This document shows, one piece after another, positions 4,930-51,204 of a stretch of DNA of 64,000 nucleotides. Position numbers and translations under genes: made by a program. The notes below the pieces were generated by a model. It did no database searches. It was not told the origin of the DNA and worked only from the letters and a program-made list of their open reading frames with translations. The stretch comes from a virus, in IMG/VR virus record IMGVR_UViG_3300045988_168611, positions 1 to 64,000 of that record; one strand, written 5' to 3'. The first letter of the stretch is position 1. Each line of letters begins with the position of its first letter.

Positions 4930-5002
4930 GGTGGTATGGGCCTTTCTTGTTGAGAGGTGTGGAGAAATGGGGGGTGATGAGGGAGGGAATCCGTACGATT
5001 CC

Positions 5003-5020
5003 CGGCACACGGTAGTGTGC
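5003..5020. promoter_or_regulatory. palindromic box CGGCACACGGTAGTGTGC (copy A)
   Basis: 17 of 18 nt identical to the copy at 5567-5584. It lies 4 nt after the stop of CDS 5024..5503. Confidence 0.5.
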
Positions 5021-5023
5021 TGA

Positions 5024-9726: not shown

Positions 9727-11940
9727 ATGACAGTTGGAATTCTGACTGAGAAGCCGAGCGCAGCGCGTAATTTCGCGAAGGCGCTTGGTGGTCAGACTGG
9801 AACCTGTAACGGCGAGAACTATGTGATTGCGTTTGCTCGCGGCCACCTCTTCGAGCTGAAGCAGCCGGTGGATCAGGTGGATTCGTCGAAGCGCACGCAG
9901 TATGCGTCGTGGGTGCTGAGTGATCTGCCGTGGGATGTGAACGATCTTGCTTTCGAGCGAGAGAAGAAGGATGGTGTGTCGAAACTGCTGTCCGACATCC
10001 GCACGGCGTTCCGTTCCTGCGATGAAATTTGCATCGCTACCGATGTTGATCCATCGGGAGAAGGAGGGCTACTAGCCTGGGAAATCATCGCTGCCCTCGG
10101 ACTGGACACAAAGCCTATCTCGCGCATGTATTTCACCGATGAGGCTCCAGCCTCGATCAAGAAGGCGTTTACGTCGCGTAAGCGTCTGACTTCGATGGAA
10201 GATCACGATGAGTACCGCATGGCGTGGCTGCGATCAAGGTGGGATTTCCTCTCGATGCAGTGGACCCGTGTTGCCTCCCAGCTTGCGGGTCAGCGCACTG
10301 TGCTGCGCCAGGGTCGACTGAAGTCGGCCATGACCGTGCTCGTGGGTGATCAGCTGAAGGCTCACAAGTCGTGGAAGAAGGTGCCGTTCTACGAGTCCCG
10401 TTTCCGTGATGAGAACGGTGTCATGTACTCCGATCCCGATGCTCAGCGACATGCCAAGGAAAGCGATGTGGATCTCAGCGGTCTTCACGCATCGAGCGTG
10501 ACGGTGGACTCTAAGACCATGAAGCGATCTGGTCCACCCAGGATGCTGGATCTGGCTGGTCTGTCAGCACTTCTGAGCGCTAAGGGCGTGAAGGCGGCGG
10601 ATGTGCTGAAAATCTATCAAAAAATGTACGAAGCCCAAGTCGTTTCGTACCCCCGCACCGAAGACAAGCACGTCACCAAGGAGCAATTCGCGGAGCTTGT
10701 GAGCAACGCCTCTGCAATCGCTCGCGCTGTCGGTATCGATCCAGCTCTGCTGACGCACACTGCGGCTCGTTCGACGCACGTCAAGGACTCTGGTGCCCAC
10801 GGTGCAAACCGTCCTGGTCCCAATGTCCCGAAGTCGCTTGCGGATGTGGAGGCGAAGTACGGCAAGACGGGTGCCATGATCTATGAGCTGCTGGCTCGCT
10901 CTGCCCTCGCGGTTCTCGCAGAGGACTATGAGTACGAGGCTCAGAAGGGTCACGTCACTGACTTCCCCTCCTACACGGGTTCGTGCTCGGTGCCGAAGAA
11001 GCCGGGTTGGAAGTCTGTTCTTGGTGGCGCATCGATGGCAGACGATGATGATGATGAGAACAACGTGACGGGTCTGGGTACCCAGGCTCAGCCGTTCGTT
11101 CACGAGGGTGTTCCACCGCGCCCTGCGGCCCCCACCGTTAAGTGGCTCATGAAGCAACTGGAGAGGCGAGACGTGGGCACTGGTGCAACGCGCACCAGCA
11201 CCTTCGCTGAGGTGTCAAGCTCGAAGGCTCGGTATCCTCTCATGACTGAAACGAGGGGCAAGATTGCTCTCACTGAGCATGGTGACATGAGCTACCGGCT
11301 GTTGCCAGGAACTCATATTGGTGATCTCACGATCACTGAACGAGTGTTCGCTGACATGAAGGCTGTGGCCAAGGGTCAGAAGAATGCAGACGATGTTCTG
11401 GCTGAAGTGGCCGGACTGATCACAGATGATATTGCCGTCATGACGGCGAATGCACAAACAATGCGAAAGGAACTTGGAATGAGCGAATTTGTCGAGAAGG
11501 AATACTTCGAGGGTACGTGGGCCAAGAACGGTCAGCACGTGAAGTTCAACCGTACGTGGAGTGGCCATCGTTTCACCGATCAGGAGTGCATGGATCTCCT
11601 GGCTGGTAAGGACATCGAGATCACTGCCACGTCTAGGAAGACGGGGGATGACTTCACCGTCATTGGGGCTCTTGGGGAGAATGAGTTCAATGGGCGTAAG
11701 TTTGTTGGTTTCAACCCTGATTACACCAAGCCGACCTCGGCTGCAAAGAGGGGTGTTGCCCCCAAGTCGATGCTTGGCGTGAAGCTGACTGATGAACAGC
11801 GTGAGAAGATCGAGGCTGGGGAAAAGGTTAAGGTCAAAGGCATGAAGTCCAAGAAGACCGGCAAGACCTTCGATGCGTATTTGTCCCTGGAAGATAAGCC
11901 GGATGGGACGCGCGGTATTGCGTTCTCGTTCGACAAGTGA
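9727..11940 (+). CDS. type IA DNA topoisomerase (conjugative-element Topo III-like)
   Basis: N-terminal TEKPSAARNFAKALGG. TOPRIM acidic cluster IATDVDPSGEG. Active-site VVSYPRTEDKH, cf. the Y-x-R-T-D/E catalytic tyrosine motif. Confidence 0.85.
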   Translation: MTVGILTEKPSAARNFAKALGGQTGTCNGENYVIAFARGHLFELKQPVDQVDSSKRTQYASWVLSDLPWDVNDLAFEREKKDGVSKLLSDIRTAFRSCDEICIATDVDPSGEGGLLAWEIIAALGLDTKPISRMYFTDEAPASIKKAFTSRKRLTSMEDHDEYRMAWLRSRWDFLSMQWTRVASQLAGQRTVLRQGRLKSAMTVLVGDQLKAHKSWKKVPFYESRFRDENGVMYSDPDAQRHAKESDVDLSGLHASSVTVDSKTMKRSGPPRMLDLAGLSALLSAKGVKAADVLKIYQKMYEAQVVSYPRTEDKHVTKEQFAELVSNASAIARAVGIDPALLTHTAARSTHVKDSGAHGANRPGPNVPKSLADVEAKYGKTGAMIYELLARSALAVLAEDYEYEAQKGHVTDFPSYTGSCSVPKKPGWKSVLGGASMADDDDDENNVTGLGTQAQPFVHEGVPPRPAAPTVKWLMKQLERRDVGTGATRTSTFAEVSSSKARYPLMTETRGKIALTEHGDMSYRLLPGTHIGDLTITERVFADMKAVAKGQKNADDVLAEVAGLITDDIAVMTANAQTMRKELGMSEFVEKEYFEGTWAKNGQHVKFNRTWSGHRFTDQECMDLLAGKDIEITATSRKTGDDFTVIGALGENEFNGRKFVGFNPDYTKPTSAAKRGVAPKSMLGVKLTDEQREKIEAGEKVKVKGMKSKKTGKTFDAYLSLEDKPDGTRGIAFSFDK

Positions 11941-20629: not shown

Positions 20630-20686
20630 GTGTGGGACGGGACGAAAGAACGGATAAGAGCTCGAATGAACGAAAAGGAGATAGGT

Positions 20687-22567
20687 ATGAAACCAGAGGG
20701 GATTGAAAAGCTCCCTCAGAGTCAAGATGCCGGTATTGAACCGTCTGCTCAGCCCAATGAGCCTGTGGACACGGGAGCTGACACAGGAGCGAACGGTACC
20801 GATGTGATGGGTTCTGGTGGCGCTGAGCCCGGTGACGGTGGTCTGCTGGGTGACGGTATCCAGGGAGGCCAGGGTCAGGGCGGTGCTCGTAAGGCTGCGA
20901 CCGGAGCTGCTGCTGGAGCAGCGGCTCCTGCTGCGGCGCAAGCCGCTGCGCTGACTGTGTTTCTCAATTGGCTCAAGACGGTGATGATGTCGATCATGGC
21001 AGCGGCTCAGTCACTGTGGTCTGCGATCACAGGTGCTGTTGTTGCAGCAGCAAAGGCTGTCGTTGGTTTCTTCACAGGAGCCGGTGCAGCTGTTGCCAGC
21101 GCACTAGGTGGAGCTGTGTCGGCGGCGACCGCGACTGTTGCAACGGTTGTGGCAACGGCTGTTGGCGCGGGTGCTGTTATTGCTGGTGGCGCGGTTGCGT
21201 TGCGTGATGGCGACATGGCTGCTCGCAGCGATGGGTTGCTAGAGCCATGCACTGTGGCTGTTGAAAACGCAGCAAAGGCAGCAGACGGCGCTGTTGGTGA
21301 TGTATCTGCCAAGACCGAAGAGAATGCCAAGACTGTGTACTCTGTGCTCTCTGCCTGGGGTATGTCGGATGAGAACATTGCTGGTGTTCTGGGCAACTGG
21401 TCGCACGAGTCGGGTATCGATCCAACCAGTGTGGAGACGATCTTTGACGAGAAGTTCACGATTGGTCCTCGTAAGCAAGACGCTGAGGCCAAGGGCTTCA
21501 AGATTGCACAGGTGGATCCTGCGTATTCGGCACGTTTCCCTGCGATCGATCTCATGGGTATTGGTCTGGGTCAGTGGACAAACGGTCGTAACGCGCTGCT
21601 CACCGAGTACGCACAATCGATCGGTAAGCCGTGGTCGACGCTGGAAACCCAGCTCGGCTTCATGATTTCAAAGGACGATCCGGCTCGCGTGGCTCAGGTG
21701 AAGGCTCTGATCGATAACTCCGAGGGCGGTAGCGTCTCTGCGTCGACCTCGTACTTCCTCACGAAGTGGGAAGGTATCAACGACGGTACGCTCGGCTCTC
21801 GCGAGAGCGCTGCTGGTACCTGGTTTGCCAAGATGGGCGGCTGGGAGAAGAACAAGTCTCTCGCTGATTCGATCCTGGCTCAGTCGGGCAGCGCTGTGAC
21901 CGGTGCGAACAGTAGCTCCGTTGCCGCTGCTGCCAGCAAGTGCAAGTCGCACGGTGGCAAGGTGGATAACTCCACGATGGTCAAGGCTGCGATCTCTTAC
22001 GCATGGCCGTACAACGACGATGGTAAGGGTAACGATGGCACCGACATCTACAAGTACCTCCACAAGGAGGTGCTCGGTGAGTCGGATAACTACTTTGCCT
22101 CGTGCGACCGTACTGTTGCCACCGCTGTTCGCTGGTCTGGTACTGACGATACGTACCCGGCTGGTGGCGTGTCCAATCAGCTAGAGTATCTTCAGGGTCA
22201 GGGTGGTTCGAAGTGGACCAAGATCGACTACAACGGCGACAAGTCCAAGCTTCAGCCCGGTGACATCCTCCTGCGTACAACTGGCGGTGTGTCGCACACG
22301 GTCATGTACGTTGGTGAGGACTCTGTGAAGGAAGTCTGGGGCGAGGGTAACTACGAGCCCCAGGGCGAGATCGTCTCGGGTTCGCTCAACGATCGCGCTC
22401 CGACAGTGGGCCAGTTCTACACTGGTTCGACCGGTCTCGATACGGACTATGTCGCGTACCGAAACACCACGAAGGAGTCTTCCTCGAAGTTTGCATCGGT
22501 GACGGTTCCGTCCACGATGCAAAAGGGTCAGGGCGATAAGAACTCTCGTCTGACCCCTGGTCCGTGA
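20687..22567 (+). CDS. T4SS peptidoglycan hydrolase: lysozyme-like domain plus NlpC/P60-type Cys peptidase domain
   Basis: ATG 20687 after AAAGGAG. Ala-rich TM region. NIAGVLGNWSHESGIDP...GIGLGQWTNGR is a phage-tail-lysozyme-like signature. C-terminal YFASCDRTV...GGVSHTVMYVG supplies the Cys...His pair. Confidence 0.7.
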   Translation: MKPEGIEKLPQSQDAGIEPSAQPNEPVDTGADTGANGTDVMGSGGAEPGDGGLLGDGIQGGQGQGGARKAATGAAAGAAAPAAAQAAALTVFLNWLKTVMMSIMAAAQSLWSAITGAVVAAAKAVVGFFTGAGAAVASALGGAVSAATATVATVVATAVGAGAVIAGGAVALRDGDMAARSDGLLEPCTVAVENAAKAADGAVGDVSAKTEENAKTVYSVLSAWGMSDENIAGVLGNWSHESGIDPTSVETIFDEKFTIGPRKQDAEAKGFKIAQVDPAYSARFPAIDLMGIGLGQWTNGRNALLTEYAQSIGKPWSTLETQLGFMISKDDPARVAQVKALIDNSEGGSVSASTSYFLTKWEGINDGTLGSRESAAGTWFAKMGGWEKNKSLADSILAQSGSAVTGANSSSVAAAASKCKSHGGKVDNSTMVKAAISYAWPYNDDGKGNDGTDIYKYLHKEVLGESDNYFASCDRTVATAVRWSGTDDTYPAGGVSNQLEYLQGQGGSKWTKIDYNGDKSKLQPGDILLRTTGGVSHTVMYVGEDSVKEVWGEGNYEPQGEIVSGSLNDRAPTVGQFYTGSTGLDTDYVAYRNTTKESSSKFASVTVPSTMQKGQGDKNSRLTPGP

Positions 22568-26023: not shown

Positions 26024-28354
26024 ATGAGCTTGAAGCAGAGCATTGTTGTTGTCAACGAGTTCAGTGTGCCAACCCCAGGCGGGGGTAAACATGGCGGTTC
26101 TCGCGGTGGCACACCCGGTGCTTACGTGATGCGCTACATGGCGCGCAAGGGCGCAACCGAGCCTGTGACGCCCATTCGTCGACACGATACGGAAGACTTC
26201 ATCCTGCGCTATATGGCACGAGAGAGTGCCACAGAAAAAGCTGTGTCGAGGCATCAGCTCAAAGACAACGTGCTGCATGTGTCTGGGCAAGGCGGTGTTG
26301 CATTCGGTTATGGTCAGCCGTCACTGTCCGATGAAGGCGTGCGCCGTGCCAGTGCTGACATTCAGCGTTTGTTCGACGAGGGGCATACAGTGATGAAAAC
26401 CGTGCTGTCTTTCAGCCCTGAGTATCTTCAAGAGACAGGTGTTGTCCCCAAGGGCTTCGTCGCACAGAACAAGGGTGATTATCGAGGCCATATTGATCAG
26501 ATGCGTCTGCGTATGGCGATTATGCATGGCTTGGAGCGTATGGGGCATCGTTTCGATGATCTGCGCTACGTGGGTGTGATCCAGGTTGATACCCTGCATG
26601 TTCACTGCCACCTTGCCATGGTCGATGCCGGGCTCGGTCGACGTGTGCGTACAGAGAAGGGCATGCAACAAAAGGGCAAGCTCACCAGCACGGATATATC
26701 GCTGTTGCGACGCGGTGTTGACTCGTGGCTTGATGAGAACCAGCACGTGGCTCATATGTCCAGTGCTGTGGGCTATGAGCGCATGAACGTTGCTGCGTTC
26801 GTGAAGCGTTGGGCTCATGAGAAGGTGCTCGATGAGTCACTGCCTCAGTTGTTGTTGGCGTGCTTGCCTGCTGACAAGACGTTGTGGCGTTATGGGTCTC
26901 ATCGACCGGAGATGCGGCGCGCGAATAGTGTTGCAACAGAGCTCGTTACTGAGTTGCTCGATCGACCTGGCTCTCCCATGGGATCAGCCATGATCGCAGT
27001 CGAGACATATGCGAACCGTCGAGCTCAGCGAGAGGGTTTGGGCGATCGAGAGCGTCAGGCGCTTGTGCAGCGTGGTTATGACACGATTATGGAGCGCAGC
27101 GTCAATGGTCTGTACCAAGTGCTGCAATCTCTCCCACCCGAGGCTCTTTCTGTGCGTACACCGATGCTCAACGTGATGAGCCAGGATGTGGAGACGCTCA
27201 TGGTGACGCAATCTCAGCGCATGAAGACCCAGGCTCAGGGTATGAGCGCTGATGATGATCTGGTTGGATTCTCACTGCGCCTTCGATCGTATGGAGCTCG
27301 TCTACGAGAGCATGATACGCAGCGTGAGTATTGGCGTATGCGTGCTGCTGACTGGGAAGCCGGTCTTCAGGCAGGCGCGGTATCCCCACAATCCGAGGTG
27401 ATGCACAAGCTGTATCTGGAGGAAGAGGAATACCACGCTCGTTGCGTCAGTAAGTACCGATCGTTGCTCGGGCCACTAGCGGTAGGTGTTGACGGGCAGC
27501 GTCAGGATGACGACTCGTGGAAAGGCGTGTTGGAGTCGGTGGATAAGCGACGCGAAGCAGTCGTTGGTCTCGAAGCTCTGCTGGCAGATAGATCCATCCC
27601 GAAGATGAAGGACGCTGATGAAGCTGAGAAGCTCGGTGTTGCTGCCCATGGTGTGAGTGGTGGACGCTTGCTTGTGGCCGGTGGTAAGGCTGGTCGGACT
27701 ACGTTGAAGCAACGCTTGGAGCGAGCTCGTGCATCATTGGCTTCTCGAACAGCAGATCTTGTGTCGATGCTGTCCGGGAAAGGACTTGTATTGCAAGCGA
27801 TACAAGATGATGCGCGCGAGGATAATCAAGACGATCAGGGCGATCGTGGTGCTGTGAGTGTGGTTCCAGGGGAGCGATGGGCGCTGTCTCAGACAAAGGG
27901 TATGGATTTGCACGACGTGCGTTCTGATACTGTTGTCGACATGGCGCTTGGTCGCCATGTTGCCGATCGGTTCGTTACCTGGGCGCGCAGAAGGCGACAG
28001 CTTGTTGATGACGCTCAGGCGTATCTGCATGAGTCTGGTCAGGAAGACATTGTCGAGATGGTTCTTCCTCTCGATGATGTCCGTCGAATGAATCGTGTTG
28101 CTGATGATCTGGAACGCCAGATGTCAGCGAAGAAGACCGGGGATCTCATTCTCACGAGTGCTCTTAGTGATGTGGTGCCAGTAGCGAAACGTATTCGCCG
28201 TAGCGCAACAGTGAGTTTCGATGAAGGTCTTGCCGGAATCGTGCGGACAAGCACGTGGAGCGAGACTGAGCGTTTGGTACCTCAGCTGGAACAGGTGTTG
28301 GAAGAGAGCGAGACTTCATCAATGGATTCTATGGATTCCATGGAATTGGGATGA
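26024..28354 (+). CDS. relaxase (MOBQ-like N-terminal domain) with a long C-terminal extension
   Basis: GGSRGGTPGAYVMRYMARKGA resembles RSF1010 MobA SRSGGQSARAKADYIQREGKY (catalytic Tyr region). The histidine triad-like motif is IQVDTLHVHCHLAMV, with HVHCH at nt 26597-26611. Confidence 0.7.
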   Translation: MSLKQSIVVVNEFSVPTPGGGKHGGSRGGTPGAYVMRYMARKGATEPVTPIRRHDTEDFILRYMARESATEKAVSRHQLKDNVLHVSGQGGVAFGYGQPSLSDEGVRRASADIQRLFDEGHTVMKTVLSFSPEYLQETGVVPKGFVAQNKGDYRGHIDQMRLRMAIMHGLERMGHRFDDLRYVGVIQVDTLHVHCHLAMVDAGLGRRVRTEKGMQQKGKLTSTDISLLRRGVDSWLDENQHVAHMSSAVGYERMNVAAFVKRWAHEKVLDESLPQLLLACLPADKTLWRYGSHRPEMRRANSVATELVTELLDRPGSPMGSAMIAVETYANRRAQREGLGDRERQALVQRGYDTIMERSVNGLYQVLQSLPPEALSVRTPMLNVMSQDVETLMVTQSQRMKTQAQGMSADDDLVGFSLRLRSYGARLREHDTQREYWRMRAADWEAGLQAGAVSPQSEVMHKLYLEEEEYHARCVSKYRSLLGPLAVGVDGQRQDDDSWKGVLESVDKRREAVVGLEALLADRSIPKMKDADEAEKLGVAAHGVSGGRLLVAGGKAGRTTLKQRLERARASLASRTADLVSMLSGKGLVLQAIQDDAREDNQDDQGDRGAVSVVPGERWALSQTKGMDLHDVRSDTVVDMALGRHVADRFVTWARRRRQLVDDAQAYLHESGQEDIVEMVLPLDDVRRMNRVADDLERQMSAKKTGDLILTSALSDVVPVAKRIRRSATVSFDEGLAGIVRTSTWSETERLVPQLEQVLEESETSSMDSMDSMELG

Positions 28355-29139: not shown

Positions 29140-29160
29140 TAGAATGACTGGTACACCAGT
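29140..29160 (+). promoter_or_regulatory. -10 TAGAAT (29140-29145, preceded by TGC) plus the palindrome ACTGGT-AC-ACCAGT at the predicted TSS
   Basis: Read directly. The ORF-track ATG at 29144 lies inside the -10 hexamer. Confidence 0.4.
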
Positions 29161-29197: not shown

Positions 29198-32100
29198 TTG
29201 TTTGATGATGATCGTTTGAACGATGCATACCCGCTGCTTCGAGACTTTGCGGCCAAGCTTTCGCCGCCTGCTCGCGATATTGTGGGCCGAGAGAATGAGA
29301 AGATCTCTCTGATGAGCTCTCTGGCTCGCCCTGAGATGTGTAACGTGATCCTGTTGGCCCCACCTGGTACCGGTAAGGCTCATCCGAATGATGAGTTGAT
29401 CCCTGTTGCCGATGAGCGTGGATACGTGCGTGTGGGTCTGCTCAAGGTGGGCGATCGTGTCTTTGATGAGCACGGTGAGCCTGTGACCGTAACGGGTGTG
29501 TTCCCTCAGGGAATCAAGCGCGAGTACGTTGTGGTGACGAACTATGGCGATCAGGTGCGTTGCAACGATGAGCACCTGTGGACGGTGCGATCGGTTGGTG
29601 ATGTAGAAGGTGCGCAGCGAACGATGTCGCTGCGCGAAATTATGGATGCCGGTTTTGTCGGATCTGACGGTGGCCCTATCTGGCAGCTTCCTGCCTCTGG
29701 TGCGCTTGTGCGACAGAGCCGTCTTCTTCCAGTTGATCCATATGTCTGTGGTGCTTTGCTCGGCTGGGGTGTTCGTATCGATGAGCGTGGGTACGTGACC
29801 GTTCCCAATGAGATGCCCGATGAAGTCTTTGCTGCTATCGAGGATCGCATGGGGTGGGAGCGTGTGCATGATGGTGGTGAGCGTTCGACGTTTATCAACC
29901 GTGCGACAGGTAAGCGTCTGACACCTGATGAGGTGATGACTCATCCGGTGATGACGAGTGTTTTTGTTAAGTCGGAGAATCAGCGTCATATCCCGTACAC
30001 GTACATCACCAGCTCAGTGAAGGATCGAGAGGCTGTGCTACGAGCGCTGCGAGACAGTGAGTCGTACCGTTTGTCCCAAGGGACTGTATGGGTTGTTGAT
30101 GCTGATATGCGTGAGCTAGAGCGTTCTCTCGATGCGATTGGTGATATGATCGCTGAGGTGATCGACACTGGTCGTGAAGTCGAGATGACGTGCATCATGG
30201 TCGACTCTGAGACACATCTGTACCAGGTGGGTCGAGCTCATGTTGTCACGCACAACACGGTGCTGGTGCAGTCCTGTATGCAAGATGATCCAGAGCGTAT
30301 CTACCTGGAAGTCGACATGGCGAAGATGATCGCTAACCTGTCGAATCCTGAAGAGATGGCTGCGCGCCTCAAGGCTCTGTTCGACGAGGCTGAGAGTTTC
30401 TCGCAAGCCGAGGGTCGAGAGATCGTGCTGTTCATTGACGAGTTCCATCAGGTGGTGCAGCTTTCTGCTGCTGCTGTGGAAGCACTGAAGCCGTTGCTTG
30501 CTGCCTCTGGTTCGCGTGGTATCAAGGTCATCGCTGCGACCACGTATGACGAGTTCAATGCTCATATCGCATCGAATCTGCCGCTTGTCGAGCGACTGGC
30601 GCGTATCAACATCCCTCAGACGAATCGTGAGGTGACGATCGCGATTCTGAAGGGTATGGCGAAGAAGTACGGTGTCGATGAGGGGATCTTCAACGACTCT
30701 CTGTACGAGCAGATCTTTGACTACACGAATCGGTACGTTCCTGCCTCCGTGCAGCCTCGTAAGTCGATCCGTGTGCTCGATGCGATGGTGGGACGCCATC
30801 GTTACCTGGGTGAGCGAATGGACAAGAAGCTCCTTGCTGATGTTCTCAAGATCGAGTTCGGTGTTGAGGTGGAAATTAACGTCGATGCTACAGAGATCAA
30901 GTCTGAACTGGATAAGCGCGTGTTCAGTCAGGATTTTGCTACCACATCGATCGCACGTCGTTTGCAGTTGTGTGTTGCTGGGTTGAATGACCCCAGTAAG
31001 CCGATGGCATCGCTGTTGTTCACGGGGGCCACAGGTACGGGCAAGGCCACTACAGATTCTACTCGTGTACCAGTTTTTTCTGAGGACGGTTCTGTGGCAT
31101 GGAAACTTGCTGGTGACCTTGTTGTTGGCGATTACGTGTTTGCTCGCGATGGCTCTCCGACGAAGGTCCTCGGAGTGTTCCCTCAGGGGGAACGCGACGT
31201 GTACCGAGTGACGTTGGTAGACGGACGCATTCTTGATGTTTCTGACAACCACCTGTGGGCTGTTTATCCCAATAGGAGTGGGGCGTATGATGGTCCGACA
31301 ATTTATTCGACTAAGACTTTGGGATCTCTGATGAATAAACAAAGCGCTGTTGAATATTTTGTTCCTATGAATCAGCCGGTGCAGTGGCCTACGGCAAATC
31401 TCCCTGTGGATCCGTATGCGCTCGGTGCGTTGATTGCTAATGGTTGGTTTATGGGCCGCGACCTTTCTATGTATTCAGGTATCGATGAAGACATAGTTGC
31501 TCGTGTTGGCCAAGCTATTGGTGCTGTTTCGTGGGATCAACCTCGGGGTACGCATTCGTGGTGTTTCCGTACAGATAAGGAACAAGAGGTTCAGAAGGCA
31601 GATGTGCTTGTTGGTTCAGCTTCTGAGTTGATTGGTGTGCATGAGCTATCGCTATTTATCCCTGAGCAGTATTTGAATGCTTCGATTGAACAACGGTGGT
31701 CTTTGGTTCAAGGGTTGTTTGATTGCGACGGTTATATTGATGAGTACGATCATTATCGTATTTCTTATGCCACAGAATCGAAACGACTTGCTGAGGATGT
31801 TCGTATCCTGTTGCTTTCTCTTGGGGTGCAATGTTGGATTAAACGACATGAACCACGTAAGGGTTTGTTTGCAGCGACTGAATACGAAGTTCGTGTGATG
31901 GCTCGTGTTTCGGATGAACCTCGTTTTTTCAGTCTTGATCGAAAGAAGCGCCTTGCCATCGAGGGTCAGTATAGGCATAGTCGAGCGTTGGAGAAGGCGT
32001 TCGATTACGTCGGTATTCGTTCTATCGAAAAGCTCGACGCGAAAGAGAGCATGACCTGTATCTATGTCGACAACGATGAGCACCTGTATCAGGCTGGTGA

Positions 32101-32926
32101 TTTCATCGTGACGCACAACACGGAGGTCACGAAGCAACTAGCGAAGATTCTTTTCGGTGATGATCAGCGGCACCTCATCCGGTTCGATATGACCGAATGG
32201 GGTCGTGACGACAGTGTGGATCTGTTCCGCGAAGAGTTGTCGCGTCAGGTGTGGGCAACCAGTCACTGCGTGCTGCTCTTTGACGAGATCGAGAAGGCGT
32301 CCCCGCTTGTCGTGCGTCTGCTGCTCCAGGTGCTCGATGATGGTCGACTCTCTGACAAAGATGGTCGACAGGTGTCGTTCTTGAACACCTACATCGTGTT
32401 GACGACGAATGCTGGTTCGGAGATCTATCGCACCATTGGCGAGTACAACGCCGATGATCACGGTAGTGAGGCCAGCATGCGTGAGTATGAGAAGGTCATC
32501 GAAGAGTCCATTAAGAGCACGGATGGCGGTAAGTTCCCGCCTGAGCTCCTGGGACGTATCGATGCGATCGTGCCGTTCCAGCCGTTGTCGCGGCCTACGT
32601 TGCGCAAGATCATGATGAAGAAGCTGAGTGCTCTCAAGGCTGATGTGAAGCGTAAGCACGGTATCGATCTGACGATCGATAAGCGTGTTGTCGACTTCCT
32701 GGTGGAAGATGAGTCGCGTAGTGATTCTGATGCAGGTGGTGCGCGTGACATGGTGCGTCGCATGCAGCGATACCTGTCGACGGAAGTTGCAGCGTTCATC
32801 AACGAACACCCCGAGGAACGTGTGATCGCAGCCAAGATTGACGGCACGCTACGCAGCGAAGATGTGAATATTTTGAAGTCTGATGCTCGTGTGGTTGTCT
32901 TGCCGTACGACAAGCCACAGGCTTAG
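29198..32926 (+). CDS. Hsp100/Clp-type double-AAA+ ATPase (no N- or M-domain recognised) interrupted by two inteins
   Basis: Likely start TTG 29198 (GGAGG 6 nt upstream) or ATG 29174. NBD1: PPGTGK|T, IVLFIDEFHQ, VIAATT. NBD2: GATGTGK|T, VLLFDEIEKA, VLTTNAGS, PELLGRIDAIVPFQPL. Confidence 0.8.
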   Translation: MFDDDRLNDAYPLLRDFAAKLSPPARDIVGRENEKISLMSSLARPEMCNVILLAPPGTGKAHPNDELIPVADERGYVRVGLLKVGDRVFDEHGEPVTVTGVFPQGIKREYVVVTNYGDQVRCNDEHLWTVRSVGDVEGAQRTMSLREIMDAGFVGSDGGPIWQLPASGALVRQSRLLPVDPYVCGALLGWGVRIDERGYVTVPNEMPDEVFAAIEDRMGWERVHDGGERSTFINRATGKRLTPDEVMTHPVMTSVFVKSENQRHIPYTYITSSVKDREAVLRALRDSESYRLSQGTVWVVDADMRELERSLDAIGDMIAEVIDTGREVEMTCIMVDSETHLYQVGRAHVVTHNTVLVQSCMQDDPERIYLEVDMAKMIANLSNPEEMAARLKALFDEAESFSQAEGREIVLFIDEFHQVVQLSAAAVEALKPLLAASGSRGIKVIAATTYDEFNAHIASNLPLVERLARINIPQTNREVTIAILKGMAKKYGVDEGIFNDSLYEQIFDYTNRYVPASVQPRKSIRVLDAMVGRHRYLGERMDKKLLADVLKIEFGVEVEINVDATEIKSELDKRVFSQDFATTSIARRLQLCVAGLNDPSKPMASLLFTGATGTGKATTDSTRVPVFSEDGSVAWKLAGDLVVGDYVFARDGSPTKVLGVFPQGERDVYRVTLVDGRILDVSDNHLWAVYPNRSGAYDGPTIYSTKTLGSLMNKQSAVEYFVPMNQPVQWPTANLPVDPYALGALIANGWFMGRDLSMYSGIDEDIVARVGQAIGAVSWDQPRGTHSWCFRTDKEQEVQKADVLVGSASELIGVHELSLFIPEQYLNASIEQRWSLVQGLFDCDGYIDEYDHYRISYATESKRLAEDVRILLLSLGVQCWIKRHEPRKGLFAATEYEVRVMARVSDEPRFFSLDRKKRLAIEGQYRHSRALEKAFDYVGIRSIEKLDAKESMTCIYVDNDEHLYQAGDFIVTHNTEVTKQLAKILFGDDQRHLIRFDMTEWGRDDSVDLFREELSRQVWATSHCVLLFDEIEKASPLVVRLLLQVLDDGRLSDKDGRQVSFLNTYIVLTTNAGSEIYRTIGEYNADDHGSEASMREYEKVIEESIKSTDGGKFPPELLGRIDAIVPFQPLSRPTLRKIMMKKLSALKADVKRKHGIDLTIDKRVVDFLVEDESRSDSDAGGARDMVRRMQRYLSTEVAAFINEHPEERVIAAKIDGTLRSEDVNILKSDARVVVLPYDKPQA
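29378..30256 (+). mobile_element. intein 1 (293 aa) in the NBD1 Walker A; class-3-like, with a degenerate LAGLIDADG region
   Basis: Begins with Ala after GTGK and ends VVTHN|T. Carries W in DEHLW (block B), C in MTCIMVD (block F) and T in THN (block G). Confidence 0.75.
31046..32119 (+). mobile_element. intein 2 (358 aa) in the NBD2 Walker A; class-3-like, with a LAGLIDADG homing-endonuclease domain
   Basis: Begins with Ala after GTGK and ends IVTHN|T. Carries DNHLW, MTCIYVD and the LAGLIDADG-type motif LVQGLFDCDGYID. The central part (about 31300-31960) is visibly AT-richer than its flanks. Confidence 0.75.
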
Positions 32927-41543: not shown

Positions 41544-41584
41544 TAGAATGGAGGGCGTAATACCCGATCGATCCAGTGGATCGA
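41544..41584 (+). promoter_or_regulatory. -10 TAGAAT (41544-41549) plus the leader hairpin TCGATCC-AGT-GGATCGA (41568-41584)
   Basis: Read directly. The ORF-track ATG at 41548 lies inside the -10 hexamer. Confidence 0.4.
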
Positions 41585-41607
41585 AACTCCAGGAAGGAGA
41601 ATGCGTT

Positions 41608-44600
41608 ATGCAAACGCGCAATGCCGGACTCCGGCGTTACATGTACGAGCACATGATCGCTCGTACGATCAATCGAACCTCAGAATTGACCAAGACTCCC
41701 ATTCTTGTGTCGCAAGGTCGACGCCTGAGGGATCTCATGGAAGAGCGTCTCAACGAACAAGGCCGTTCTTTCAACGATGGTGATCTCCCTGTTGCTGATG
41801 CGTTGAACGCTATTCAAAGCGTCATGCAGGAGAACGTTCCCGGTTACAAAGACTTGTTCCAACCTGCCGATACGTCGAGCAAGGGTTACAAGGCCCTGTA
41901 TGAAGAGTTCAGGAACATGGTCGGTCTGAATGGCTCTGCTGGAGCTGCTGGTCCTCGTCTGCCGATCTCTCCGTATGATCCTCGGTGGGGGAGCCGTCGC
42001 ACTGTGAAGCAGGCGGGAACGTCTATCCTGTACGTTCTTGATGGTGACATCGCTGCGTATGCAGACGGTAAGCCGAGCAATGTTGAGAAGGTGACGACCT
42101 CGGAGCTCACTCTGTACCGCCTGACTGACGAAGGGAAGGCCAAAGAAGCAGGCCGCGCGTTGAGCCTTGATGATGTCTCGGGTCTCACCGAGCTCATGGG
42201 TCGTATGTCGACGGCTGAGTACAACGAGGTTCGTCAGTGGGTGCTGGACGGTGCTCGCAACCCTGAAACGGGGCGTTACAACGCCCGTCAGTTCATGAGC
42301 ACTGAGGCATTGGCTCGTTCCCGAGCTGTGCTCGATATGCTGGCGGAAGAGGGAATTCCGTACACGATCGAGAAGGATCTGCGTCCTGGCCAGATTCGTG
42401 CGCGTTTGACGGGCACGAATATGACAGTGCGCCTGACTGATACTCGCGACAAGGAGCAGTGGGTGGGCCGTGTTTACGACAACGGTGCGACTTTGTACTT
42501 CTCCACGACGGCTCGTCGAGACAACAAGCAGGTGGCGTATGTGCCAACTGTTGACGAGGTGTGCGACCTCGTGCGCGTTGCGTTGGGTCGACCGGTGGAG
42601 CGTAAGGACGGCAAGGGCCTCGTGGGCCGAGTGGGCGAGCGTCAGACCAGCAAGGGTAAGACGGTTCAGGAGTCGTATCTCTCCACTGGAACACTGACGA
42701 GTGCGTACAAAGACATGCCCGGTATGAACAGTGAGCAGATCGTGATTCGTCGTCAGATGAAGGAGCGTTCTGCGTCGTCCCGGTTCTTTGCTGATACACC
42801 AGAGGGCCGTGAGCAAGCGTCGGCATTCATCTCTGATGCAGTTCACAGCGCTCGCCACAACGTGGCTGAGCAGCTGGATGTCGATGGTCTGATCCAGCAG
42901 TTCCGCGATCACGAGGATGCTGCCCGTGAGGGCGCGTACATCCCTATGTTGTCTGGTGATCCTGATCTGGCGGCAGTTGGCCGTGCGTACTGGGATGTGC
43001 TTCGTGGTGCTGAGACGACGCTACTGAAGCCCGAGGCTACTCGTGCTGAATACGCTGAAGCGACGGGTCTGCTTGACGACATGGATCAAGAGAGCGATCT
43101 GTCGGGTGTTCACGACATGTTGGTTGGTTCCGTGGCGTACACGGGTACCCCGGAAGAGCGCGTTCGCGCTCATCTTCGGGATCTTCTCGATACCCAGATC
43201 GGTATCGATGAGCCTATCGACTCTGATGACTTCGTGTTCGATCCGGTGCGCGTTGCTCGTTACATGGCGAGTGAGCACGGCCAGTGGCGCAATAATGATG
43301 ATCTCGTGGCAGCTATGCGCAGTGCAGGTGTGCCCCAGGAGAAGATCGTCGGGGAGTCGTTCTACTCCAACACGTTCCGCGATCGACTGATCACTTTCGA
43401 TGAGTCCACGGCGTTGCCGATGGATGTCGTGGAGGATACCTTTACTCAGTCGATGCTCCAGGTCGTGTCGGATACGCTGGAGTCCTGCGCTGTGACGCCC
43501 GGTTCTATCCGCGTCGACGCCAACGGTGTTGTGGAGTGGACTGGCTCGATCATGCGCTCGCAGACAGGTAAGGAAGAGCCCGTGAGCGGTACGATCGGAC
43601 AGATCTTTGCTCGCGGCGAGAACGGTGAGATCATCACCCGGTTCAATTCCGGTAACGATCTGATGATCGTGCCTGGTTTTGATGCCCGTGTGGTGGCACA
43701 GAAGCCTGGGGAGAACAAGTCCCTCGAAGAGCGCACCCGGCTGATCGGTTACGAACAGCAGATGAGTGACGCGATTCGATACCGAGTTCAGGCTGATGTG
43801 CTCTCAGGTCGTTCCCGTGTGGGCGAGCCTGCCTCGCTGAACAGCGTGTACCGTCGTTTGTCGGATACGCGCCATCGCGCGGATCACTACGAGCGCGCTC
43901 TCGAAGAAGGCATGGATCGGAAGATCCTTGATGCCATTCTTGCTACCGAAGCGCGTCGTGTGCGTTACCCGAACGCTTTGCGTGATGGGTCGACGATCGA
44001 CGCTGACTTCCGTGCATCTCGTGCTCGGGAACAGGGTATTGGTGGCGATCCGGCCAACGACACGACCATGGATCCGTGGGTGTTGACCGGCGGTCGCAAT
44101 ATGTCGTTGCTCAGCGAAGAAGCCGATGGCTACTTCGATCCGATCATGACATCGGGCGGTGTGAACCAGGGTGTCACCCGTTACCTCGTGTCCGGTGCGC
44201 AGGTGAACCCTGATGGTTCGATCGTGCGTTCTGATAAGAACGATCGTGCGCCGCTGATGTTGACTGAGCAGGCTCAGCTGATGAGCTACGACCCGTTCGA
44301 TCGTCAGCAGATGACGACCTCCAATCTCATGAACGCATCGTCTGTGACGAAGCCTGTGGGTACGGCGTTCATGACTGCCGGTGGTTGGACGATGGAGGAC
44401 TCCATCGTTGTGTCTGCTGACTTCGCTCGTCAATACCGTGTTCGTGGCACTGATGGTCAGATGCGTGATCTGATCGTTGGCGACAAGATCTCTGACATGC
44501 ACGGCAACAAGGGTGTTATCTCGCTCATTGTTGACCGTGACGCGGATCTGTCTCCTGATGAGATCGAAGAGCTTCATGGGTCGACCGATATGATGACGCT

Positions 44601-47058
44601 CTTCCGGGAGAATCCGGGTCTGGATGTCGTCATGGCACCGTTCAGCGCTGTGTCTCGTTTCAACGGTGGTTCTGCCCGTGAGGCAATGCAGGAGACTGCG
44701 CCGCTTCGTTTGCCCAACGGTACGACCGTTGAGGCCGGTATGGGTAAGGTGTCGTTCATCGGTACCCATATGACGGTGGATGCAAAGACAGCCGCATACG
44801 ATGAAGCTGCGATCCGGGCTGGCCAGGGCCGTAAGGCGTCGTCTCAGCTTGCGTGGGCGTTGCAGTCCCAGGGCTGCGATAAGGTGCTGGAGCAGATGTA
44901 CGGTGGCAACCTACAAGCTCTTGCACAGCTGCGTGAGATGGCTCTGGTGTGCGGTTTGGACATCGAGCCTGATGGCACCTTGCGTGATGGTCATGATGAT
45001 CTTGCTGTCGGTGGGCAGCGCCGTCTCATTGAGATGGGCGATGTTCCGCTCACTGAACGTGGATCGTTCGACGTGCGTCGCGTTCGTAACGATTTCGCTT
45101 CGTTGATTGGTGACGCTGGCGGTGATATGGAGATTCCGTTCCCGCTGACGATGCCAACGGGTGCTCGTACGCCTCATGCGACTGATACGACGTGGCGTGT
45201 GCCGGTGCTGAGCTCGCATCTGCGATCGGGCCAGGATCTTGACGACGGTACGTCGACGGTCCATGACTACACGTATCGCTACCTTGCGATCCGTGAATGG
45301 TCGCTGCGCTACAAGCATGCTGCTGATCGAGCTGCGTCTGGTGAGCTGACTGGCAAGGAGCTTTCTGATGCTCGTCGAACGATGGCTGAGGCGATGCATC
45401 GCGCTCAGACTGCGTACGATGGCATTGCACAGGACATCATGCGTCGCCGGTTCACCGGCAAGCGCAATGTCTTCAAGGAAGGTCTCATGGCTTCGCGTCT
45501 GCCGCACTCGGCCACTGCTGTGTGGACGGGTGATCCTCGTCTGGACATCGACCAGGTCGGTGTTGGCCCGGAGCTGGCGAAGAAACTGCATCTGCGTGAC
45601 GGTGATTACGCGCTTGTGTGGCGTGACCCCGTTCTTCGTGATGCGGGTGTGCGTTACATGCGCGTGAGCCTTGACGATCGTCTCACTGGTGTGAGTGTCA
45701 ATCCCAATATGGTCAAGTGCTTCGACGGCGATTTCGATGGTGACTCTGTTGCCGTCGTGAAGCTGGGTGATGGTCCGGCACATGAGCAAGCGCTGGAGCG
45801 CCTGACTGTCGAGGCTAACCTCATTGATCTGGGTCAGAGCATGGATGACGAGGGTCGTTACCCTCTTGCGATGCACAACGCGCTCGATGTGAAGGTGTCG
45901 CAGCACTACGATTCTCGTCATGCGGATGCGATGGATGAGGTCCACCAGCGTGCGAACGACGCCTACTATGATCTCGTGGAAGGGGAGGCTAATCGCGAGC
46001 AGTTCCTGGACGAGGGTCGTGATGTCGTGGATGCAGCGTCCTACATGTACCGTGAGGCGCTCAAGCATCAGTACGGTGAGGCTGTGTTGTCGTTTGGTTC
46101 CGTTCAGGAGCACATGAAGTCTGTGGAGGCTGCGTGTATTGAGACGGGAGCTAAAGGCTCGCCTAAGAAGATGCTGGATTATGCTCGATACATCGGGTAT
46201 GACCCGGAGAACCAGGTGGATCTGGTGACCACGCGCGTGACGCGCGAGGAACAGCTGGGTACCATGTATGCAACGGCTGTGAAGTCGTTTGGTACCGGTG
46301 TTGCCGGTACGTTCTCTCAGCGCGGCGTGCGAGCTCTTCGTAACGACGAGCTCAAGGCTGTGTTGGAGCTGACGTACCCGGTGACGCAGAGTATTCTGCA
46401 AGCCAAGCACGATCCGGTGGATGCTCGTCACCGGTATGAGCTGCTGATGGGTCCGGCTCGAAGCTTGTGGCGTGGTCAGGCGATTGCACAGGATGGCAAC
46501 GGTGTGTGGAACACTGTGACGGACGACGATCGTAAGCCGGTTCAGGCCACCAAGGATCAGTGGGTTGCCATGTTCTCGCAGTTCTACGGCGATGCAGGTC
46601 TGGGTGTGGCTGTGAACAGCGACAACATCACGAAGGTTGCAAATGCGCTCAGCGATAGCAACGGAGTGATGGTGAACCTGGAAGATGAGAAGGTCATTGA
46701 GCAGCTTGCTTCTCCGATGGATCGTCTGGCTTACGGCGGTGACTTCACCACGATGCAAGCGTTGGCTGAGGCTCACGCTAACCTGTTCGAGGGTCAGTGG
46801 AACGCCAAGTTTGCGCCAGCTCGTGTGCGTGAGGTGATGGAGGCCGATGTGGAGACGCAGGCCGAGGCACCGGTGATCGCCATGGAAGACACAGTGGCTC
46901 GTGTGGATCGTGATGAGAAGATCGGTCGACGTAAGTCGACATCGTGGGCTGTTCCGGTGCGTTCGCATACGGGTACCAGTGCAGCTGAGCGTTACGGTCT
47001 GACGGCACAGGTGGACAATGAGGCAGATGTGTCTGTCGACGACGGTTTCGAGTTGTGA
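41608..47058 (+). CDS. single-polypeptide fused beta/beta'-like two-barrel RNA polymerase (1816 aa)
   Basis: ATG 41608 after AGGAAGGAG. RpoB-like FMTAGGWTMEDSIVVS, VGDKISDMHGNKGVIS and DVVMAPFSAVSRFNGGSAREA. RpoC-like KRNVFKEGLMASRLPHSATAV, FDGDFDGDSVAV and ETGAKGS. Confidence 0.8.
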   Translation: MQTRNAGLRRYMYEHMIARTINRTSELTKTPILVSQGRRLRDLMEERLNEQGRSFNDGDLPVADALNAIQSVMQENVPGYKDLFQPADTSSKGYKALYEEFRNMVGLNGSAGAAGPRLPISPYDPRWGSRRTVKQAGTSILYVLDGDIAAYADGKPSNVEKVTTSELTLYRLTDEGKAKEAGRALSLDDVSGLTELMGRMSTAEYNEVRQWVLDGARNPETGRYNARQFMSTEALARSRAVLDMLAEEGIPYTIEKDLRPGQIRARLTGTNMTVRLTDTRDKEQWVGRVYDNGATLYFSTTARRDNKQVAYVPTVDEVCDLVRVALGRPVERKDGKGLVGRVGERQTSKGKTVQESYLSTGTLTSAYKDMPGMNSEQIVIRRQMKERSASSRFFADTPEGREQASAFISDAVHSARHNVAEQLDVDGLIQQFRDHEDAAREGAYIPMLSGDPDLAAVGRAYWDVLRGAETTLLKPEATRAEYAEATGLLDDMDQESDLSGVHDMLVGSVAYTGTPEERVRAHLRDLLDTQIGIDEPIDSDDFVFDPVRVARYMASEHGQWRNNDDLVAAMRSAGVPQEKIVGESFYSNTFRDRLITFDESTALPMDVVEDTFTQSMLQVVSDTLESCAVTPGSIRVDANGVVEWTGSIMRSQTGKEEPVSGTIGQIFARGENGEIITRFNSGNDLMIVPGFDARVVAQKPGENKSLEERTRLIGYEQQMSDAIRYRVQADVLSGRSRVGEPASLNSVYRRLSDTRHRADHYERALEEGMDRKILDAILATEARRVRYPNALRDGSTIDADFRASRAREQGIGGDPANDTTMDPWVLTGGRNMSLLSEEADGYFDPIMTSGGVNQGVTRYLVSGAQVNPDGSIVRSDKNDRAPLMLTEQAQLMSYDPFDRQQMTTSNLMNASSVTKPVGTAFMTAGGWTMEDSIVVSADFARQYRVRGTDGQMRDLIVGDKISDMHGNKGVISLIVDRDADLSPDEIEELHGSTDMMTLFRENPGLDVVMAPFSAVSRFNGGSAREAMQETAPLRLPNGTTVEAGMGKVSFIGTHMTVDAKTAAYDEAAIRAGQGRKASSQLAWALQSQGCDKVLEQMYGGNLQALAQLREMALVCGLDIEPDGTLRDGHDDLAVGGQRRLIEMGDVPLTERGSFDVRRVRNDFASLIGDAGGDMEIPFPLTMPTGARTPHATDTTWRVPVLSSHLRSGQDLDDGTSTVHDYTYRYLAIREWSLRYKHAADRAASGELTGKELSDARRTMAEAMHRAQTAYDGIAQDIMRRRFTGKRNVFKEGLMASRLPHSATAVWTGDPRLDIDQVGVGPELAKKLHLRDGDYALVWRDPVLRDAGVRYMRVSLDDRLTGVSVNPNMVKCFDGDFDGDSVAVVKLGDGPAHEQALERLTVEANLIDLGQSMDDEGRYPLAMHNALDVKVSQHYDSRHADAMDEVHQRANDAYYDLVEGEANREQFLDEGRDVVDAASYMYREALKHQYGEAVLSFGSVQEHMKSVEAACIETGAKGSPKKMLDYARYIGYDPENQVDLVTTRVTREEQLGTMYATAVKSFGTGVAGTFSQRGVRALRNDELKAVLELTYPVTQSILQAKHDPVDARHRYELLMGPARSLWRGQAIAQDGNGVWNTVTDDDRKPVQATKDQWVAMFSQFYGDAGLGVAVNSDNITKVANALSDSNGVMVNLEDEKVIEQLASPMDRLAYGGDFTTMQALAEAHANLFEGQWNAKFAPARVREVMEADVETQAEAPVIAMEDTVARVDRDEKIGRRKSTSWAVPVRSHTGTSAAERYGLTAQVDNEADVSVDDGFEL

Positions 47059-50798: not shown

Positions 50799-51140
50799 AT
50801 GGCGCTCTACAAGAAGGACGCGGAGAAGAATGTGAGGGTGGACGATGACACTCGTATGACGAAGACGAGGTTGATACAAGCTGTATCGAAGCGGACGGGT
50901 ATCGATGCGGCGACGGTGCGAGCTGTGTATGCGGCAATCGTTGATGAGATCATCACGACTACCCGTTCTGGCCGATCGGTCATGCTGACGGGGTTCGGTC
51001 GTTTCTACCGGCTGCATAAGGCCGGTCATACTGTGCAGTTCACCAAGTCGGGTACAGGCGTAGTACCTGGCTACGACGTGCTGAAGTTTTCTGCTTCGTC
51101 GACATTGAACCGATCTTTGACAAATGAGTCGAGTGAGTAG
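50799..51140 (+). CDS. HU/IHF-family DNA-binding protein
   Basis: MTKTRLIQAVSKRTGIDAATVRAVYAAIVDEI...VMLTGFGRFY fits the HU fold signature. The start is uncertain (ATG 50799 or 50856). Confidence 0.6.
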   Translation: MALYKKDAEKNVRVDDDTRMTKTRLIQAVSKRTGIDAATVRAVYAAIVDEIITTTRSGRSVMLTGFGRFYRLHKAGHTVQFTKSGTGVVPGYDVLKFSASSTLNRSLTNESSE

Positions 51141-51154
51141 TCGTACGATCGTGA

Positions 51155-51195
51155 GAACAAAACCCTGAGCACGTGATGTGCCCAGGGTTTTGTTC
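51155..51195. terminator. bidirectional terminator GAACAAAACCCTG/CAGGGTTTTGTTC
   Basis: Perfect 13-bp stem between convergent genes. Confidence 0.7.
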
Positions 51196-51204
51196 ATGCG
51201 GAAG

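Follow-up and report, generated by a model that had tools for sequence, protein, structure and literature searches.

Why are both ATP-binding loops of a single two-ring ATPase interrupted, between the same two residues, by inserts of several hundred codons, and how are the two inserts related to each other? The question is raised by a gene for an AAA+ ATPase of the Clp/Hsp100 type in the virus record IMGVR_UViG_3300045988_168611 of IMG/VR, of which we have analysed positions 1 to 64,000; this whole stretch of 64,000 nucleotides is referred to throughout as the window. Our reading, to which we assign a probability of roughly 85%, is that the gene carries twin class-3 inteins in the Clp-like ATPase of a conjugation module, and that the two have separate histories: intein 1, in the P-loop of the first nucleotide-binding domain (NBD1), would be fixed and endonuclease-dead, while intein 2, in the P-loop of the second (NBD2), would have homed recently.

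Inteins in both Walker A motifs

The open reading frame (ORF) of the ATPase is unbroken across 1243 codons and stays open on the + strand to position 32926. There are two candidate starts, a TTG at 29198, with GGAGG upstream, and an ATG at 29144, which is the one chosen in the gene call of the source record (1260 aa). Both inserts begin and end at exact codon boundaries (Table 1), and each splits a Walker A motif between its Lys and its Thr, at homologous sites of NBD1 and NBD2. With a slash at each junction, the sequence reads LAPPGTGK/AHPNDE…RAHVVTHN/TVLVQSC in NBD1 and TGATGTGK/ATTDST…GDFIVTHN/TEVTKQ in NBD2, and in silico removal of the inserts leaves a 591-aa protein in which PPGTGKT and GATGTGKT are restored. 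In all these respects (coordinates, homologous sites, restored motifs) a first-pass annotation, made by a model from the letters alone, is borne out by our conceptual splicing; the masses that it gave, about 68 kDa for the spliced product and 137 kDa for the precursor, have to be replaced by ~66.2 and ~139.5 kDa as computed from the TTG start.

In a sequence search of the PDB, both inserts match gp41-1 and the class-3 DnaB inteins of Mycobacterium smegmatis (6BS8) and M. chimaera (6RIX), with alignment of their N-terminal as well as their C-terminal blocks in either case. We have also built profile hidden Markov models (HMMs) from 145 other P-loop inteins, with the window's own excluded, and run them on all ORFs of the six-frame translation of the window. 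The N-terminal part was recognized with E-values of 3e-33 (intein 1) and 4e-29 (intein 2), the C-terminal part with E-values of 6e-19 and 4e-23, respectively. No further intein was detected in the 64 kb by these class-3 models: since HMMs of other inteins match only these two inserts in the window, the matches cannot be due to chance. An ORF at 7518-9674 was considered as a possible intein or endonuclease gene and rejected, as its match to a PHROG 'homing endonuclease' is weak and it resembles DUF7487 plus a methyltransferase.

The AlphaFold (AF2) model of intein 1 (pLDDT 88, pTM 0.83) finds its best fold matches, at full length, in PI-SceI and the VMA inteins (TMq up to 0.68), while its splicing domain matches the class-3 DnaB intein of M. 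smegmatis (Msm) with a TMt of 0.84; intein 1 is therefore predicted to consist of a Hint fold and an endonuclease-like fold. For intein 2 the assignment of a Hint fold comes from its sequence. An intein-free orthologue of the ATPase is encoded by the Gordonia plasmid pGKT2: it has 588 aa, is 54% identical to the conceptually spliced protein, and aligns with it without gaps at both junctions (LLAPAGSGK/TVLVQ and GVGK/TELTKQ). Blocks A, B, F and G, the terminal His-Asn and the nucleophile at position +1 are all found in the two inserts, each of which ends in THN/T. Taken together, these comparisons confirm the assignment of both inserts as inteins, placed in the two Walker A loops of one ATPase.

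Class-3 inteins are defined by a non-nucleophilic residue 1, a Trp at block B position 12 (B:12), a Cys at F:4, a Thr at G:5 and a Thr or Ser at +1 (PMC2807308, PMC5050341). Both inteins start with Ala1 and are followed by Thr at +1. In intein 1 the block-B His and the B:12 Trp are His66 and Trp68 (both within 29567-29581), the F:4 Cys is Cys272 (within 30185-30205), the G:5 Thr is Thr291 and the terminal pair is His292-Asn293; the corresponding residues of intein 2 are His69 and Trp71 (both within 31244-31258), Cys338 (within 32051-32071), Thr356 and His357-Asn358. The Trp thus stands two residues past the His in the motifs DEHLW (intein 1) and DNHLW (intein 2), and the Cys is embedded in MTCIMVD and MTCIYVD. 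Each element listed by the first-pass annotation (an Ala start, a (V/I)VTHN end followed by Thr, the Trp, the block-F Cys, and the Thr before His-Asn) was found in both inteins, which, as judged from these residues, carry the full Trp-Cys-Thr (WCT) signature of class 3. A class 1 reading is excluded by Ala1, and a class 2 (KlbA-like) reading by the WCT triplet and Thr+1.

The signature is equally constant in related P-loop inteins: the F:4 Cys, which was not demanded in extracting them, is present in 147/147, the B:12 Trp in 138/147 and the G:5 Thr in 145/147. Residue 1 is mainly Ala among the same 147 inteins, and otherwise G, S, L, M, D, P, N, Q or C, a variability to be expected of a residue without a catalytic role. 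The block-F Cys region of both inteins aligns with the region of Msm DnaBi1 that contains Cys118, the proven nucleophile of that intein (PMC6195587). We infer that inteins 1 and 2 use class-3 chemistry.

The pathway that we propose would start from a precursor of ~140 kDa in which both P-loops are split between the invariant Lys and Thr, and in which neither nucleotide-binding site would accept ATP before its own intein has left. The block-F Cys would attack the peptide bond before Ala1, the N-extein would be transferred to Thr+1, the terminal Asn would cyclise, and an O-to-N shift would complete the bond, yielding a normal GKT P-loop and an ATPase of ~66 kDa. Because both insertion sites lie in Walker A, it is a sound deduction from the sequence that ATPase activity would be conditional on two splicing events.

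Origin and fate of the two inteins

The first-pass annotation had described the two inteins as clearly paralogous and had suggested that one was copied to the other site by intragenic homing. Shared motifs are indeed present, but the first statement is too strong, as direct alignment gives only 28% identity in a stretch of 229 aa and 45% in another of 49 aa, and the second is not supported by the comparisons that follow. With intein 1 as query, 1.84 billion representative proteins were searched, which gave 8913 matches at E ≤ 0.001; the top matches are mostly Clp-like proteins of 1200-1480 aa aligned in four stretches, and thus contain twin inteins. A total of 147 P-loop inteins were extracted and sorted by host protein and site, and 32 proteins turned out to be occupied at both P-loops. 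In pairwise comparisons over 131 aligned splicing-domain columns, mean identity was 0.438 within the NBD1 site and 0.431 within the NBD2 site, as opposed to 0.363 between the two sites; NBD1- and NBD2-site inteins compared with inteins of unrelated host proteins gave 0.364-0.366. The same-protein partners of the 32 twin-intein proteins (mean identity 0.376) are therefore no more alike than random cross-site or unrelated-host pairs.

The splicing domains of inteins 1 and 2 are 36% identical, and their mutual ranks are 116th and 120th of 146: the two inteins of this protein are not each other's closest relatives. The nearest neighbour comes from the same site for 34/39 NBD1-site inteins and 27/34 NBD2-site inteins, and in bootstraps from which close orthologues were left out the nearest relative was an NBD1-site intein for intein 1 in 95% of cases and an NBD2-site intein for intein 2 in 99.8%. 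When intein 2 is the query, NBD2-site inteins of related ATPases come first, followed by a PhoH P-loop intein (39%), and not by intein 1. Because of the low identity and rank of the pair, the site-specific nearest neighbours, and partners that are no closer than random pairs, we conclude from these alignments that each P-loop hosts its own intein lineage, and that inteins 1 and 2 are not copies of each other.

These results bear directly on the hypothesis that a single intein was copied between the two paralogous P-loops, so that inteins 1 and 2 would be recent paralogues. The hypothesis has some appeal, because both are class-3 P-loop inteins with motifs in common, because the reconstructed empty sites are alike at 17/24 nt around the junction, such that a tolerant endonuclease could in principle cut both, and because spread of class-3-like inteins between P-loops has been proposed (PMC10710043, PMC5050341). 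Cross-site jumps may even occur sometimes, as there are a few NBD2-site inteins (P0141_702 and P0273_353, for instance) whose nearest relative is an NBD1-site intein. For the pair studied here, however, a recent intragenic homing event is already contradicted by the identities, ranks and neighbours reported above, and we regard it as very unlikely.

Two side observations concern the diversity of these inteins. The Streptomyces plasmid ATPase WP_329142712 (L085 12001-16296) is a twin-intein orthologue with different inteins: the one at the NBD1 site starts with Leu (LLPLGT…), has LAGLIDADG motifs that are intact and, like mycobacterial DnaBi1, ends in GFVPTHN, while the one at the NBD2 site starts with Phe, from which it appears that several lineages have colonised the sites. 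In P0168 (1896 aa), P0174 and P0176, which are unrelated proteins retrieved by the intein 1 search, there are apparently 3-4 class-3-type junctions of the form …THN/T or …THN/S per polypeptide.

Intein 1 is carried by 120/120 of the closest homologue clusters, whose exteins are 94-98% identical to those of the window; no presence/absence polymorphism was seen among these 120 clusters, and the splicing residues are invariant in 121 orthologous sequences. Its third-codon-position GC content (GC3) is 0.543. Of the endonuclease only remnants are left, PYVCGALLGWG (29738-29770) and LRALRDSES (30038-30064), and intein 1 has no Pfam match, LAGLIDADG included, and no NCBIfam match; both LAGLIDADG motifs are lost, and the first-pass annotation was right in calling the LRALRDSES stretch decayed. 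Nonetheless, in a single comparison with the L001 allele the ratio of nonsynonymous to synonymous substitution rates (dN/dS) is 0.11 for intein 1 as a whole and ~0.13 for its dead centre, against 0.02-0.07 for the main extein segments. Intein 1 is thus, to judge from its substitutions, under purifying selection despite the lost endonuclease motifs. Its endonuclease-dead centre, which is predicted to keep an endonuclease-like fold, looks constrained as well. As a side observation, this centre (29858-30292, given as intein 1 residues 161-305) shows 92% pairwise identity among the 120 orthologues, like the splicing blocks. We propose that intein 1 belongs to the NBD1-site lineage, that it became fixed in this plasmid lineage and lost its endonuclease active-site motifs, and that it would persist because imprecise loss would destroy the P-loop and precise splicing is needed for host function.

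Intein 2 presents a different picture. It is absent from 120/120 of the closest homologue clusters, in which the NBD2 P-loop is unbroken, and when the DNA is aligned with the empty-site alleles L001-L003, the match is interrupted at 31045 and resumes at 32117-32120, so that the insert amounts to exactly 1074 bp. Intein 2 is in this way polymorphic for presence at a fixed site among close relatives, which is the footprint of homing. The closest relatives of intein 2 (up to 64% identical) occupy the same NBD2 site of related ATPases. At 0.479, against 0.542 for the extein, its GC content falls at the 2.6th percentile of the 64 kb scored in stretches of 1074 bp. The bias is stronger in GC3 (intein 2, 0.433; extein, 0.641) and strongest in the endonuclease part (0.371), where the first-pass annotation had already perceived an AT-rich centre. 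Given the foreign GC3, the presence of LAGLIDADG_3 and the nearest relatives at the NBD2 site, intein 2 looks like a recent, compositionally foreign mobile insertion, and would have come from the NBD2-site lineage through homing, mediated by its endonuclease, into a then empty NBD2 site.

The endonuclease domain of intein 2 matches Pfam LAGLIDADG_3 above the cut-off (E = 1.5e-11); comparison with Pfam, which the first-pass annotation had proposed as a check on both inserts, was therefore positive for this intein only. The same annotation had credited intein 2 with a good LAGLIDADG motif, and this holds for motif 2, LVQGLFDCDGYID (31703-31741), which contains GLFDCDG, and not for motif 1, PYALGALIANG (31412-31444), in which an Asn takes the usual acidic position. 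Since the combination of Asn in motif 1 and Asp in motif 2 recurs in 9/34 NBD2-site inteins, we take it as a lineage trait and not as random decay, and the asymmetry suggests a functional variant, possibly a nickase. Besides intein 2, the NBD2-site inteins in which motif 1 ends in Asn-Gly (GNG or ANG) and motif 2 in Asp-Gly are those of P0145, P0155, P0157, P0170, P0172, P0177, P0195 and P0198, and the same asymmetry is seen in some inteins of other host proteins.

How far could the two inserts be something other than splicing inteins? They might be ordinary domain insertions, or dead inteins, kept in a mature ATPase that either works in this form or is a pseudogene. Intein 1 has no Pfam or NCBIfam match, and three I2-type alleles elsewhere are broken, as would suit this reading. 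No working P-loop is compatible with an insertion placed between Lys and Thr of Walker A, however; the ORF of 1243 codons is unbroken, all splicing residues are intact (invariant, in intein 1, across the 121 orthologues), and dN/dS is 0.02-0.07 in the exteins and 0.11 in intein 1. The possibility, raised with the first-pass annotation, that homologues retain the inserts as domains fails on the Gordonia pGKT2 orthologue, which lacks them and is colinear. Matches to proven inteins in sequence and fold, this orthologue and the exact DNA breakpoints at the empty site together rule out retained domain insertions, and we give the wider hypothesis hardly any credence. According to another hypothesis, intein 1 has been domesticated as a conditional switch on the conjugation ATPase, possibly thiol- or redox-sensitive via the block-F Cys. 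Its fixation in 120/120 close homologue clusters, the purifying selection that reaches into a dead centre with a predicted endonuclease-like fold, and the oxidative control described for the class-3 P-loop intein Msm DnaBi1 (PMC6195587) are all consistent with such a role. However, such selection would be seen in a non-mobile intein in any case, because a splicing defect kills the host protein; moreover, intein-free orthologues exist, the dN/dS values derive from one pair, and the functional role is hypothetical. We consider domestication unlikely, and we would place little confidence in the related speculation that both P-loops are long-standing landing sites and that intein 1 acts as a post-translational gate, which would delay or condition the ATPase and hence plasmid transfer.

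Twin class-3 inteins with separate histories remain the reading that we prefer, with several points weighing against it. Splicing, the role of the block-F Cys as nucleophile and endonuclease activity are things that we infer from sequence. The dN/dS values come from a single sequence pair with few substitutions. The identities by site are pairwise and not those of a full likelihood tree, and the comparison set was collected with intein 1 as query, which entails a sampling bias. The Asn in motif 1 makes double-strand cleavage by intein 2 uncertain. Finally, I2-type inteins occur at the NBD2 site in three contigs of one metagenome study in which the gene is broken inside the intein, by frameshifts in L086 (~4950-5040) and L004 (~835-884) and by an in-frame stop in L087 (~4950): these alleles may represent real decay, in which case genes bearing such an intein would sometimes be non-functional, or assembly errors.

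The host ATPase and the element around it

The spliced product matches ClpB (1qvr) with an E-value of 1e-60, and residues 187-714 of ClpA (1ksf) align to it in one stretch. Its Pfam content (AAA, AAA_lid_9, AAA_2, ClpB_D2-small) is that of a protein with two AAA+ modules, in agreement with the Hsp100/Clp assignment of the first-pass annotation as far as the two-ring type is concerned. It is not a canonical member, however: the Clp equivalogs of NCBIfam score 194-257 bits versus cut-offs of 885-1900, so that the protein falls into no named group (ClpA, ClpB, ClpV/TssH, ClpG or ClpK), and in the alignments with ClpB and ClpA the N domain and the M (middle) domain are missing, the protein beginning ~25 residues before NBD1. 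The pore loops also depart from those of ClpB, with ANLSNPEEM in place of AGAKYRGEF in D1 (no KYR and no Tyr) and a gap in place of the GYVG segment in D2. Since aromatic pore-loop residues are missing, the role of the ATPase in conjugation may not be classical polypeptide threading. On the strength of these alignments, the host protein is best described as a divergent Clp-like ATPase of the conjugation module. The D2 GYVG segment is missing also in the relatives inspected by eye (Gordonia pGKT2, P0125, P0138). The window encodes a second two-ring Clp-like ATPase (56951-58816, - strand, 622 aa), which shares 24% identity with its twin-intein counterpart and has intact P-loops (GPAGVGKT, GASGVGKS) and a canonical GYVG pore loop; an intein-free paralogue in the same element indicates that a P-loop alone is insufficient for invasion.

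Table 1. Positions in the window of the twin-intein ATPase gene, its parts and motifs, and of neighbouring genes recognized by Pfam.
Feature	Positions	Strand	Description
Host coding sequence	29198..32926	+	Precursor of a two-ring Clp/Hsp100-like AAA+ ATPase
N-extein	29198..29377	+	Ends with NBD1 Walker A PPGTGK (29360-29377)
Intein 1, 293 aa	29378..30256	+	Class-3 type, degenerate endonuclease centre
Middle extein	30257..31045	+	Remainder of NBD1, lid, NBD2 as far as Walker A GATGTGK (31025-31045)
NBD1 Walker B LFIDEFH	30428-30448	+	Within middle extein
Intein 2, 358 aa	31046..32119	+	Class-3 type, LAGLIDADG homing-endonuclease domain
C-extein	32120..32926	+	Remainder of NBD2 and D2-small domain
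NBD2 Walker B LLFDEIEKA	32273-32299	+	Within C-extein
Sensor-2 GGAR	32735-32752	+	Within C-extein
Topoisomerase	9727-11937		Pfam
Phage_lysozyme2 protein (lysozyme)	20630-22564		Pfam
MobL relaxase	26024-28351		Pfam
Type IV coupling protein, 1351 aa	35505-39557		Pfam
UvrD-like helicase	52908-56045	-	Pfam

The genes around the ATPase follow a recurring order: MobL, a small ORF, the twin-intein ATPase, an ORF of 757-760 aa, the coupling protein and a giant ORF. The same order is found on metagenome contigs of 100-235 kb and on plasmid NZ_CP109461 of Streptomyces sp. NBC_01454, where the ATPase (1431 aa, twin-intein) is annotated as 'AAA family ATPase'. Correspondence with Gordonia pGKT2 is looser, with MobL further upstream; the order ATPase, hypothetical ORF, coupling protein, large ORF is kept. 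Judged by gene content and order, the window comes from the transfer module of a conjugative element, one of the type that resides on Actinomycetota plasmids. A protein identical to the twin-intein precursor is encoded by a JGI metagenome contig of 118 kb, which is the source of the stretch. A phage origin was rejected on the basis of the Pfam content and the synteny of the conjugation module, matches to PHROGs being sparse. Megablast gave no match, either for the ATPase gene against phages or for 25 kb against plasmids, and no tRNA genes were found in the window.

Some further features of the window were noted. The ORF at 41548-47055 (+, 1836 aa) has weak matches to Rpb2_6 (RNA polymerase beta, aa 971-997) and Rpb1_2 (beta-prime/A', aa 1279-1403), and its product may be a fused two-barrel protein resembling RNA polymerase. 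Related plasmids have a conserved counterpart 3' of the coupling protein, with a 'hypothetical' annotation. Two ORFs for non-specific nucleases (Endonuclea_NS_2) stand in tandem at 2761-3552 and 3567-4370, both on the - strand. Two stretches at ~1350-2600 and ~50800-51600 have a GC content as low as that of intein 2 (0.445-0.48), and the ORFs in them are without Pfam match; these may be other foreign insertions.

Relation to known inteins

The mechanism proposed here is not new: good descriptions exist of class-3 inteins in the P-loops of ATPases, and inteins 1 and 2 are ordinary members of that group. What is new is the Clp-like two-ring ATPase of Actinomycetota-type conjugative elements as an intein host, and the occupation of both P-loops in at least 32 sequence clusters (50% identity level), with a lineage of its own at each site. 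No description of twin P-loop inteins in a Clp-like conjugation ATPase was found in the searchable literature, nor anything relevant on an intein in the context of a Clp ATPase, of ClpB and Walker A, or of a relaxase or coupling protein, the ClpI paper being silent on inteins. If our reading is correct, one gene displays the intein life cycle at both its ends: one intein is fixed and endonuclease-dead yet still under selection, the other newly arrived, compositionally foreign, equipped with an endonuclease domain and polymorphic among near-identical plasmids. The gene offers a natural system for studying homing-site specificity between similar P-loops, and for asking if the order of splicing has consequences in a double-ring ATPase; it could supply protein engineering with orthogonal class-3 inteins as well. 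For annotation it carries a warning: where a gene on such plasmids is labelled 'AAA family ATPase' and has a product of 1200-1480 aa, what it encodes is a twin-intein precursor.

These observations can be compared with four known systems. The Msm DnaBi1 (6BS8) and M. chimaera DnaB-1 (6RIX) inteins are, like inteins 1 and 2, class-3 inteins at a Walker A site, starting with Ala1, bearing the WCT triplet and ending in THN, and M. smegmatis DnaB likewise carries two inteins in one protein. DnaBi1 differs in being a mini-intein with Ser at +1 in a replicative helicase, and its partner DnaBi2 is a class 1 intein at a non-P-loop site; in the ATPase of the window both inteins are of class 3, both sit in P-loops and have endonuclease-sized centres, and the host is the Clp-like protein of a conjugative element. 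The DnaB intein of mycobacteriophage Bethlehem, the class-3 prototype (PMC2807308), shares with inteins 1 and 2 the WCT triplet, Thr+1, a non-nucleophilic residue 1, the full size with LAGLIDADG and the location in an ATPase P-loop. It has Pro instead of Ala as residue 1 and resides in a different host protein and genetic element; its block-F nucleophile has been proven biochemically (Tori et al. 2010, PMC2807308), whereas that of inteins 1 and 2 is predicted.

The 'classic' P-loop inteins of phage terminases (TerL1-a) and ATPases (PMC5050341) are inserted at the same Lys/Thr site of Walker A. Their hosts are single-P-loop phage proteins, whereas here the host belongs to a conjugative element and two P-loops of one polypeptide are occupied. 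Phage proteins are also what is retrieved by tblastn with the window protein, which matched 872 phage records (helicases, terminases, DarB-like proteins) via its intein parts. The cluster-1 inteins of Anaeramoeba (Gallot-Lavallée et al. 2023, PMC10710043) are class-3-like and lie in the P-loops of unrelated proteins; among them, those of ASC1S3 provide a parallel in architecture, since this protein has two duplicated domains and in each of them, at the equivalent site, a homologous intein, as in the twin-intein ATPase. The parallel does not extend to their origin: the ASC1S3 inteins, which are eukaryotic, are mutual best matches, whereas inteins 1 and 2 are not close relatives and would have reached their two P-loops along separate paths.

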